DNA of 64,000 nucleotides from assembly GCF_000026545.1 (NCBI RefSeq), contig NC_011601.1, one strand, 5' to 3'. The translations under genes were made by a program, and so were the position numbers. The stretch comes from Escherichia coli O127:H6 str. E2348/69 (GTDB lineage Bacteria > Pseudomonadota > Gammaproteobacteria > Enterobacterales > Enterobacteriaceae). The notes beneath the pieces were generated by a model that made no database searches, was not told the origin of the DNA, and worked only from the letters and a program-made list of their open reading frames with translations. Positions 5,287-42,122 of the stretch are shown in pieces; position 1 is the first letter of the stretch; each line of letters begins with the position of its first letter.

Positions 5287-5943
5287 TTATTGCAATTGCA
5301 CAAGAGTCAGTTCTCCCCCAAAGACAGCACCGGTATCAATATAATGCAGGTTGCCAATATCCACGCGATGGCGCAAAGGTGTATGACCAAACCAGAAATG
5401 ATCAGCACCTGCAATTCCCTGCCCTTTTTGGCGTTCACCTAATCGCGAGCGGCTCCACAAGACCTGATGCAAATCGACGTCCTTTTGCCATTCATAGACA
5501 TCATCTGGATAATCGGCATGAGCAATAACATGTTTGCCGGTGCGACTGTGTAATTCAAGAATAAAGGGCAAATGCTGACATTTTTCCAGCGCCGTTTTCG
5601 CTTGTTTCTGTTGATTATCTGCCAGCGCAATAAACCAGTCGCCGCCATTTATCAACCATAAAGACATCTGCCGGGATGCCAGCGCATCCATCGCCATCTG
5701 TTCATGATTGCCTCTTACCGCACGAACCCAATGTTGTTCCAGTAACTGCAGGCAACGTAAACTTTGCGGCCCACGATCGATAACGTCTCCCACTGAGATA
5801 AGTAAATCTCGCCACGGATCAAAACGACAATGCCATAATTTGCGGCGCAATTGCTCAAGACAACCGTGTATATCGCCTGAAAGCCAGATATGTCGCCATT
5901 GATGACCCGCAATTCTCTGATAAATGGGCGCAGGCTGTTTCAT
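5287..5943 (-). CDS. pphA: Serine/threonine protein phosphatase 1 (PrpA/PphA)
   Basis: 219-aa ORF with calcineurin-like phosphoesterase motifs (GDIHGC, GDVIDRG, GNHE). Confidence 0.9.
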   Translation of the reverse strand: MKQPAPIYQRIAGHQWRHIWLSGDIHGCLEQLRRKLWHCRFDPWRDLLISVGDVIDRGPQSLRCLQLLEQHWVRAVRGNHEQMAMDALASRQMSLWLINGGDWFIALADNQQKQAKTALEKCQHLPFILELHSRTGKHVIAHADYPDDVYEWQKDVDLHQVLWSRSRLGERQKGQGIAGADHFWFGHTPLRHRVDIGNLHYIDTGAVFGGELTLVQLQ

Positions 5944-6039
5944 CAATATTTTCCTCCCGCGCTAAAGATCACATAATCTTAACAAGAATGTTAAAAAACG
6001 CTGGACTCAGACAGTAGAGTGTGTGTTATGGTTGACTAT

Positions 6040-6308
6040 AAAGTCAGCGAAGGGAATGCTTCTGGCTTTTAACAGATAAAAAGAGACCGAACACGATTCC
6101 TGTATTCGGTCCAGGGAAATGGCTCTTGGGAGAGAGCCGTGCGCTAAAAGTTGGCATTAATGCAGGCTTAGTTGCCTTGCTCTTTAAGAATAGATGACGA
6201 CGCCAGGTTTTCCAGTTTGCGTGCAAAATGGTCAATAAAAAGCGTGGGGGTCATCAGCTTAAATGTTAAAAACCGCCCGTTCTGGTGAAAGAACTGAGGC
6301 GGTTTTTT
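6040..6308 (+). ncRNA. ryeA: RyeA (SraC) sRNA, antisense partner of SdsR; ends are approximate
   Basis: Known to be encoded opposite sdsR and fully overlapping it; 3' end placed at the plus-strand terminator at 6266..6309; 5' end not determinable from sequence alone. Confidence 0.35.
6078..6180 (-). ncRNA. sdsR: SdsR (RyeB) sRNA, RpoS-dependent
   Basis: Minus-strand sequence 6180->6078 reads GCAAGGCAACUAAGCCUGCAUUAAUGCC...GGUCUCUUUUU, matching the SdsR sequence as I recall it, including the 3' hairpin and U-tail. Confidence 0.8.
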
Positions 6309-6309
6309 A
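6266..6309. terminator. Bidirectional rho-independent terminator (yebY on minus strand, RyeA on plus strand)
   Basis: aaaaACCGCCcgttctggtgaaagaactgaGGCGGTttttt: GC stem flanked by A-run and T-run. Confidence 0.6.
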
Positions 6310-6337
6310 TTGGAAATCAAAAGGCTATTTTAGGTAA

Positions 6338-6679
6338 TTAACAGAGTTTTTCAGCTCGCTCTATAAACGGTGCCAGACTCATTTTTTCGCCGGGATTGTT
6401 AGGATCATCAATCTGAATCACCGAAATGAGTTGGGCTTTAGTCTTCCCACTGGCAACTTCCTTTTGTGCGATATCGTTTAAAGGATACTGCACGAGGGTA
6501 CTTGGGTTGATGACATACAAAGCATTACCTGGTCGGCAAGTCAGCATCACCTCTTCGCGATTAAACGCCCATTTGTCTTTACCCACTTCAAAACGGCTGA
6601 CGGTAATCACCTGCGGTGCCGCCAGCGCAGCTGCAGAACTGGTGAGTAACAGAAACGCCAGAATACTTTTTTTCATCAT
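6338..6679 (-). CDS. yebY: YebY (DUF2511) exported protein, 113 aa
   Basis: ORF with signal peptide ([20 protein letters not shown]); last gene of the yobA-yebZ-yebY cluster. Confidence 0.9.
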
Positions 6680-37275: not shown

Positions 37276-37364
37276 GCCGGATGCGGCGTGAACGCCTTAT
37301 CCGGCCTACAAAGTCATGCTAATTCAATATATTGCAGGAACTATGTAGGCCTGATAAGCATAGC
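37276..37364. repeat. REP units followed by the cmoB terminator
   Basis: GCCGGATGCGGCGTGAACGCCTTATCCGGCCTACA and GTAGGCCTGATAAGCATAGCGCATCAGGCA; stem-loop GCGCCCGtttCCGGGCGCttttt follows at about 37397..37420. Confidence 0.7.

Positions 37365-41287: not shown

Positions 41288-42122
<835 letters not shown>

Follow-up and report, generated by a model that had tools for sequence, protein, structure and literature searches.

The window, the 64,000 nucleotides of Escherichia coli O127:H6 str. E2348/69 that were analysed, contains a 394-bp gap between two minus-strand genes, pphA and yebY, and this gap holds two overlapping small RNAs, SdsR and RyeA, both intact (Table 1). An earlier note, made from the letters of the sequence, had placed this pair between pphA and yebY, and the RefSeq annotation of the identical genome bears out both neighbours. 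The pphA–yebY intergenic region is 100% identical to that of EPEC E2348/69. The pphA frame in the mechanical list of open reading frames extends over 5287..5946, and its annotated ATG is at 5943. All of the coordinates that had been given for the elements were correct to within 0–3 nt. It had also been predicted that an annotation built on open reading frames would miss the locus; PGAP/RefSeq annotates nothing in the gap in all 80 rows listed (77 distinct records), the source strain included.

Table 1. Features of the sdsR/ryeA region, in positions of the window (arrows give the direction of reading on the minus strand).
Feature	Position	Strand	Details and basis
pphA (Ser/Thr phosphatase 1)	5287..5943	-	Downstream of sdsR; RefSeq annotation of identical genome
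ryeA sigma-70 promoter	6001..6032	+	CTGGAC 6001-6006; extended -10 TG 6024-6025; -10 TATGGT 6027-6032
RyeA (SraC) antisense sRNA, ~261-270 nt	6040..6309	+	K-12 b4432 by alignment; RACE ends; Rfam 6074..6218
SraC_RyeA (RF00101) match	6074..6218	+	176 bits; gathering 37; model 1-145/145; E 1.6e-40
Mechanical ORF, 63 codons, TTG start	6044..6235	-	Not a gene
Prophage attachment core, 32 bp	6077..6108		3' half of SdsR terminator and U-run; empty here
SdsR_RyeB (RF00111) match	6177->6078	-	114.4 bits; gathering 38; model 1-100/100; E 1.8e-21
SdsR (RyeB) sRNA, 100-102 nt	6079..6180	-	Rfam, fold, K-12 end mapping, identity to K-12
SdsR terminator hairpin, 11 bp	6112->6084	-	Followed by U5, 6082->6078
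SdsR second hairpin	6138-6121	-	
SdsR single-stranded seed region, nt 18-42	6163-6139	-	RNase E site nt 31 = 6150 (PMC5137417)
SdsR 5' hairpin	6180-6162	-	
sdsR sigma-S promoter core	6187..6193	-	C at -13 (6193); -10 TATTCT (6192->6187); A/T-rich discriminator TAAA
Bidirectional intrinsic terminator	6268..6308	both	Common to RyeA (+) and the yobA-yebZ-yebY transcript (-)
yebY	6338..6679	-	Directly upstream of sdsR, same strand; RefSeq annotation

All 4,227 Rfam covariance models were run over the whole window at their gathering thresholds. Five matches were obtained, two of which are in this region, and both the SdsR and the RyeA family are matched over their full length. A search of 6078..6180 with the Rfam SdsR model had been set beforehand as the deciding check, and the match spans 6177->6078 at 114.4 bits. 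The curated record of K-12 MG1655 contains the ncRNAs ryeA (b4432, 272 nt, plus strand) and sdsR (b4433, 104 nt, minus strand) in the same pphA–yebY gap; when these features were carried over by pairwise alignment, RyeA fell at 6040..6310 and SdsR at 6181->6078. The locus was found in 5425 of 5426 complete E. coli genomes, and 1134 E. coli genomes are at least 99% identical to the window across the entire pphA–yebY intergenic region. No sequence evidence against the identification of SdsR and RyeA was found. Judged by its sequence, the segment 6040..6310 is almost certainly an intact E. coli sdsR/ryeA locus, orthologous to b4432/b4433 of K-12.

The minus strand from 6180 begins GCAAGGCAACUAAGCC, and the SdsR sequence read from this position is GCAAGGCAACUAAGCCUGCAUUAAUGCCAACUUUUAGCGCACGGCUCUCUCCCAAGAGCCAUUUCCCUGGACCGAAUACAGGAAUCGUGUUCGGUCUCUUUUUA. 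Its minimum free energy fold consists of three hairpins, the last of which is a Rho-independent terminator (z = -4.05, with one of 200 shuffled sequences folding as well). The earlier note had described a minus-strand RNA of ~103 nt, 6180->6078, that ends in a hairpin and U5; the hairpin (6112->6084) and the U5 (6082->6078) were both found, and the start at 6180 is that of the published re-mapping. In K-12, re-mapping shifted the sdsR start downstream by 1 nt relative to the older annotation, to the G of GCAAGG (position 6180 of the window), and the 3' ends of SdsR lie at +100 to +102, corresponding to 6081–6079 (PMC6610125). The structure of SdsR, its seeds and the RNase E cleavage at nt 31 have been described (PMC5137417). 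The seed region with this RNase E site, nt 18–42, reads CAUUAAUGCCAACUUUUAGCGCAC and is identical to that of K-12 and, among the matches listed, to the consensus of 89 sequences.

Upstream of the RNA, a sigma-S-type promoter, C-TATTCT-TAAA, is intact at 6193->6183, its hexamer 7 nt upstream of the RNA of ~100 nt. The sigma-S promoter features of sdsR have been described (PMC3333887), and the -10 hexamer was placed in K-12 by the mutagenic oligonucleotide PM_SdsRR; in vitro, sdsR of K-12 is transcribed by EσS and ryeA by Eσ70 (PMC6610125). Mature SdsR is base-for-base identical to that of K-12 (b4433), with which it also shares the sigma-S promoter, the three stem-loops, the terminator and the place downstream of yebY. 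The sole difference is a C->T change at promoter position -1 (6181), which lies outside SdsR because the sdsR start was re-mapped to 6180; in this strain the RNA is also without PGAP annotation.

RyeA is antisense to the whole of SdsR and to the sdsR promoter, and it has its terminator in common with the converging yebY transcript. Because SdsR (6180->6079) lies entirely within RyeA (6040->6309), the complementarity to RyeA extends over the full length of SdsR. The most downstream RyeA start of K-12 coincides with the annotated 5' end, which is position 6040 of the window, and the 3' ends determined by RACE are at +261 to +270, or 6300–6309 (PMC6610125). The ryeA -10 element was placed in the same study with mutagenic oligonucleotides that change TATGGT to CTCGAG, a mutation that abolishes RyeA in K-12 (PMC6610125), and the promoter element TGnTATGGT at 6024-6032 is intact and identical to that of K-12. 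The whole of RyeA folds with z = -3.76 relative to shuffled sequences. A bidirectional terminator had been proposed at 6266..6309; we found that the hairpin 6268..6308 folds on both strands, and the K-12 RyeA 3' ends fall at 6300-6309. The hairpin has the form A5-CCGCC...GGCGG-T6, so that a U-run follows the stem on each strand, and its folding energy is -20.1 kcal/mol on the plus strand (z -3.76) and -19.8 kcal/mol on the minus strand (z -5.08). The consensus terminator scan, which found the SdsR terminator, missed 6268..6308 because the stem is bulged, and direct folding of both strands recovered it.

The match to the Rfam RyeA model does not count as evidence for RyeA, because it mostly mirrors SdsR. 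The model covers an internal 145 nt only (6074..6218), not the mapped ends of RyeA. It also matched 16 of 16 diverse loci tested, including those of Yersinia, Serratia and Dickeya; because the model essentially corresponds to the opposite strand of sdsR and its promoter, these matches do not show that RyeA is present there. Since the two Rfam matches are not independent of each other, the support for RyeA in this strain is the identity of its promoter, start and terminator to those of K-12. RyeA of K-12 (also SraC, Tpke79 and IS091; b4432) has the same promoter, start, terminator and complete overlap with SdsR, and differs from RyeA of the window by four substitutions (6054, 6181, 6248 and 6260) and by one T more in the terminator U-run.

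We scanned one genome per species with a pattern made from the conserved SdsR core motif and obtained at least 120 loci; the species loci listed belong to the Enterobacteriaceae, Yersiniaceae, Pectobacteriaceae, Hafniaceae and Erwiniaceae. Among the matches listed, nt ~24–103 of SdsR are nearly invariant in 89 distinct sequences, and in the 88 distinct sequences compared for the terminator helix, pairing is 100%; both partners have changed in three of its pairs and a single partner in three. The middle helix does not vary at all, but it was fixed by the search pattern and is hence uninformative. For the 5' hairpin, a MAFFT alignment was rejected as a test of pairing, as it was out of register with 70% of cells paired. 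When each distinct segment was folded singly, 53 of 53 among the matches listed formed a hairpin of at least four pairs, and the stems differ clearly from one another (GGC/GCC, GGTTG/CAACT, GGGCTG/CAGCC, AGACT/AGTCT). As read from these alignments and folds, the pattern of conservation in SdsR is that of RNA helices, not of codons. Of 117 species loci among the matches listed, 114 have a sigma-S-type -10 element, C(-13)-TAYNCT, where it would be expected.

The surroundings of sdsR were also compared. Among the matches listed, 101 of 108 species loci have a yebY homologue upstream of sdsR and in the same orientation. Downstream, a block of rsmF–yebV–yebW–pphA follows in many genera of the Enterobacteriaceae; the distance from the SdsR 3' end to pphA varies between ~150 nt and more than 3 kb among the loci listed, and none of the genes of the block is within 3.4 kb in 31 of 55 loci among the matches listed. 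Counting pphA within 1.2 kb of sdsR (8 of 88 loci listed) understates the synteny because the length of the spacer varies. The idea that yebV–yebW–pphA and the ryeA promoter form an E. coli-specific island inserted at the SdsR att site was rejected, as the rsmF–yebV–yebW–pphA block lies downstream of sdsR in many genera, with nothing but the length of the spacer varying.

The promoter of RyeA has a narrower distribution. We searched for CTGGAC–N17–21–TATGGT on the RyeA strand up to 400 nt beyond the SdsR 3' end, with the opposite strand as a control. Among the matches listed, a RyeA-type promoter is present in only 22 of 106 species loci, and there is none on the control strand. The genera that carry it are Escherichia, Citrobacter, Enterobacter, Lelliottia, Leclercia, Atlantibacter, Pseudescherichia and Silvania. 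A search with blastn-short for the ryeA promoter and leader had found E. coli only; alignment and the motif scan identify this result as a false negative for the promoter. The leader between the ryeA promoter and SdsR is conserved in neither sequence nor length, and in all other loci but one it exceeds that of E. coli by ~15-37 nt (mostly 27-37). The length result agrees with the report that SraC is ~35 nt longer in Salmonella and Shigella and that sraC is conserved only where it overlaps sdsR (Fröhlich 2012, PMC3333887).

All mechanistic steps for this strain are inferred from K-12 and Salmonella on the basis of identical or nearly identical sequence. In growing cells, sigma-70 would make RyeA, whose transcription would interfere with the convergent sigma-S promoter of sdsR; RyeA would pair with any SdsR that is made and both would be degraded, the duplex being a substrate of RNase III, as reported (PMC3333887). 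On entry into stationary phase or on starvation, RpoS would drive sdsR, and SdsR would by analogy titrate RyeA away and accumulate. SdsR would bind Hfq and use two seeds, the first within the 5' hairpin and the second uncovered by the RNase E cut at nt 31, which is expected to convert part of SdsR to a form of ~70 nt. It would probably repress many mRNAs in trans (ompD, tolC, mutS, yhcB, crp, stpA and yeaGH). Hfq binding, accumulation in stationary phase and repression in trans are known for K-12 and Salmonella (PMC3333887, PMC5137417, PMC10954441). Most transcription of pphA would come from read-through of the sdsR terminator, as it does in K-12 (PMC6610125).

The earlier note had also described an RpoS-dependent SdsR with a fully complementary partner RyeA and behaviour like that of a toxin and its antitoxin, and this is what Choi et al. 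(2019, PMC6610125) report for K-12, mutual antagonism included. In K-12, SdsR inhibits growth by repressing yhcB and RyeA relieves the inhibition; the two RNAs promote each other's degradation, and RyeA delays the appearance of SdsR (PMC6610125). Mutation of the ryeA promoter raises sdsR-lacZ about 4-fold and changes the expression of few genes (PMC6610125). The description "mutually antagonistic" agrees with that study, but the symmetry that it implies does not hold: SdsR rose only ~1.5-fold without SraC/RyeA in another study, whose authors regard SdsR as the primary product of the locus (Fröhlich 2012, PMC3333887). The toxin/antitoxin label is used because overproduced SdsR is toxic through yhcB and RyeA neutralises it, which may apply equally to this strain; yhcB lies outside the window. 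This behaviour rests on overexpression experiments, and the physiological weight of RyeA is debated.

The 32-bp core within the SdsR terminator (Table 1) was identified by junction mapping in E. coli strain 2014C-3050. The locus is split, with no single piece covering it, in 237 of 5,425 E. coli genomes. In strain 2014C-3050, a lambdoid prophage of ~46 kb that carries a tyrosine integrase, an excisionase, RalR, RecET and the effector gene nleG7 lies between pphA and yebY, and its two junctions share the core corresponding to 6077..6108 of the window. The junction on the integrase side keeps a complete sdsR with a terminator variant supplied by the phage, and on the pphA side of the lysogen all that is left of ryeA is its promoter and the initial ~69 nt of the RNA. 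Of 5426 complete E. coli genomes, 228 (4.2%) carry the integrase–SdsR junction, among them strains of O26:H11 and O103. A similar prophage junction occurs in E. albertii, and another E. coli genome has an IS1A within the 5' hairpin of sdsR. RyeA (6040-6310) had no match in 50,697 phage records, among which no free phage with the att core was identified. Because the prophage leaves sdsR intact, parts RyeA from its promoter and moves pphA ~46 kb from the sdsR promoter, lysogeny might work as a natural switch, taking away the antagonist of a toxic sRNA and freeing pphA from RpoS control, and the window would then represent the "unswitched" state of a node that phages can rewire. We regard this proposal as speculative and rather improbable. 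If it is true, only the regulatory consequence of lysogeny would be new, since sdsR was earlier reported as an insertion hot spot in Salmonella (Balbontín 2008, as cited in PMC3333887, ref 102).

We weighed the intact locus against other explanations. The differences from K-12 listed above could mean that the locus is present yet inactive or altered in this strain, through the C->T change at 6181 or the other four RyeA differences. Yet position 6181 is -1 of the re-mapped sdsR start, a position that varies freely among species (AAAGGGC, AAAGTGC, AAAGAGC and others), and both -10 hexamers, the C at -13, the whole of mature SdsR and both terminator stems are unchanged; the 1134 nearly identical E. 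coli genomes also argue against an exceptional state, and we consider inactivity very improbable. Even less credible is a protein-coding gene at the 63-codon frame, with the RNA-family matches being incidental. The frame does exist in the mechanical list, and among the matches listed it is open across the body of SdsR in 36 of 112 species, as expected where the sequence is nearly identical; it is closed in the other 76 of 112, and in 72 of 112 none of the three sense frames inside SdsR is free of stops. Its TTG start is not preceded by a purine-rich Shine-Dalgarno sequence (the upstream sequence is ATGACCCCCACGCUUUUUA), and it stops 35 nt past the SdsR 3' end. Because the frame opens 55 nt ahead of the mapped sdsR start, the abundant SdsR transcript cannot encode it. 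Searches of Pfam and NCBIfam with the 63-, 50- and 38-aa mechanical frames gave no match at E <= 1, and the 63-aa sequence was not among ~15 billion predicted proteins in an exact look-up, which a protein with another start codon would escape. The frame is annotated neither in the curated K-12 record nor in the PGAP records, and conservation follows the RNA helices instead of codons. Five independent lines (start and ribosome-binding site, stops across species, Pfam, NCBIfam and the protein collection) thus uphold the view of the earlier note that the frame at 6044..6235 is an artefact; the coding reading is effectively refuted already.

A more serious alternative to an intact pair concerns RyeA itself: only SdsR may be functional, and RyeA may be a lineage-restricted antisense transcript that acts mainly by transcriptional interference or is noise, not a dedicated antitoxin. 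The confinement of sraC conservation to the overlap and the ~1.5-fold effect of SraC loss (PMC3333887) are consistent with this, as are the promoter found in only 22 of the 106 species listed, a leader unconserved in sequence and length, the 228 of 5426 E. coli genomes that tolerate a prophage severing RyeA from its promoter, and the few genes that change in the ryeA promoter mutant (PMC6610125). However, where the promoter core is present it lies on the correct strand in at least eight genera with none on the control strand, which argues for selection, and in K-12 RyeA delays SdsR, is degraded reciprocally with it and rescues cells from SdsR toxicity, with sdsR-lacZ about 4-fold up when the ryeA promoter is mutated (PMC6610125). 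On balance, we think it unlikely that RyeA lacks a dedicated role, and we retain the reading of the locus as an intact SdsR/RyeA pair.

The sdsR/ryeA element is an already known and ordinary one, and every defining feature of both families that can be examined in sequence is present. Knowledge of SdsR and RyeA dates from 2001–2003, and earlier work has mapped their promoters, ends and targets as well as their mutual degradation, in keeping with the earlier note, which had called the locus known rather than novel. As a discovery, the locus in this strain matters little. The practical point is one of annotation: the 394-bp gap is blank in PGAP, and a naive ORF caller could report a spurious protein of 63 aa. 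Transfer of the curated K-12 features (RyeA 6040..6309 on the plus strand, SdsR 6180..6079 on the minus strand) repairs this gap.

Three known systems resemble parts of this locus. Like the phage att sites at the 3' ends of tRNA and tmRNA genes, the 3' terminator half of sdsR is entered, in other E. coli, by a tyrosine-integrase prophage that brings a replacement copy, and the RNA gene stays intact because of this copy; unlike those sites, the target is the terminator of an Hfq-dependent sRNA, and in the window the site is empty. The arrangement of the two RNAs resembles that of CJnc190/CJnc180 of Campylobacter jejuni. In the pair as reported (PMC8687705), a trans-acting sRNA is likewise overlapped by an antagonistic antisense RNA and RNase III acts on the duplex, whereas the sequences and the organism are unrelated and RNase III processing is needed there for maturation of the sRNA. 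The third likeness is to type I toxin-antitoxin systems such as hok/sok and ibs/sib. In those systems, a toxic transcript is neutralised by a cis-encoded antisense RNA. SdsR and RyeA share with them the neutralisation of a toxic transcript by a cis antisense RNA through extensive pairing and degradation of the duplex. In contrast to them, the toxin is not the mRNA of a membrane peptide but an Hfq-dependent regulatory RNA that acts on trans targets such as yhcB, both SdsR and RyeA are non-coding, and the toxicity is seen on overexpression.

The gap between pphA and yebY (5947..6337), which matched EPEC E2348/69 at 100%, carried no PGAP feature at the equivalent position in any of the 80 rows (77 distinct records) among the RefSeq matches listed (H1-H80). 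The ryeA and sdsR genes were annotated only in the curated K-12 record. Near sdsR, the window differed from K-12 solely at 6181, where a C->T change on the plus strand corresponds to G->A on the RNA strand. This base, which varies across species, was nt 1 of sdsR in the old annotation and became position -1 after the start was re-mapped.

The junctions in E. coli 2014C-3050 showed that the 3' half of the SdsR terminator (6077..6108) forms the 32-bp core of a prophage attachment site, which is unoccupied in the window. The insert in 2014C-3050 is a lambdoid prophage of ~46 kb that carries an integrase, RecET, RalR and the nleG7 effector. We found the integrase-SdsR junction in 228 of the 5426 complete E. 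coli genomes, O26:H11 and O103 among them. In lysogens, sdsR itself is unbroken, the ryeA promoter is separated from RyeA, and the sdsR promoter is separated from pphA. The coordinates of the junctions and of other features are listed below.

Features located in the analysis
Feature	Position	Strand	Description
Predicted sigma-70-like site	6327..6354	-	CTGAAA-16-TAAAAT; yebY 3' end, upstream of shared terminator
att junction evidence	L003 5990-6040; L125 1-205 and 46982-47143		E. coli 2014C-3050 loci
MicL sRNA	41288..41595	-	Rfam 371 bits, full length, above gathering score
C0465	53466..53543	+	Rfam 111.6 bits, above gathering score
ES036/CssrF	37310..37352	+	Rfam 48.2 bits, above gathering score

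One further insertion was observed at this locus and another is probable. In E. coli FDAARGOS_944 (L004 6225-7000), IS1A is inserted after the equivalent of 6171; this point lies within the SdsR 5' hairpin, and thus both sRNAs are disrupted in this strain. In Escherichia albertii NBRC 107761 (L007), a TTTCGGGGAGA motif and a second terminator-like copy lie just past the SdsR 3' end, and the flank of the terminator is closer to the phage-type junction of 2014C-3050 (L003) than to the ryeA promoter. Judging from its sequence, this species representative probably also carries an element integrated at the SdsR terminator. The exact Enterobacterales SdsR core was also present in two assemblies labelled Bacteroidota, Chryseobacterium sp. 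18061 (L087) and a MAG labelled Flavobacterium psychrophilum (L088), most likely through contamination or mis-binning of both.

The predicted sigma-70-like site is near the location given for the older "heat-shock pphA promoter", which Choi 2019 (PMC6610125) put upstream of sdsR, ~180 bp from its promoter, and found to show little activity.

The RyeA leader, which extends from the promoter to the SdsR 3' end (6033..6077), is 45 nt long in E. coli, compared with 61-82 nt in 20 of the 21 other promoter-bearing loci among those listed (L006, L078, L057 and 18 more) and 17 nt in the one exception. Its sequence showed no conservation between E. coli and these 21 loci. The greater leader length in nearly all of these loci agrees with PMC3333887, in which SraC was described as longer in Salmonella and Shigella.
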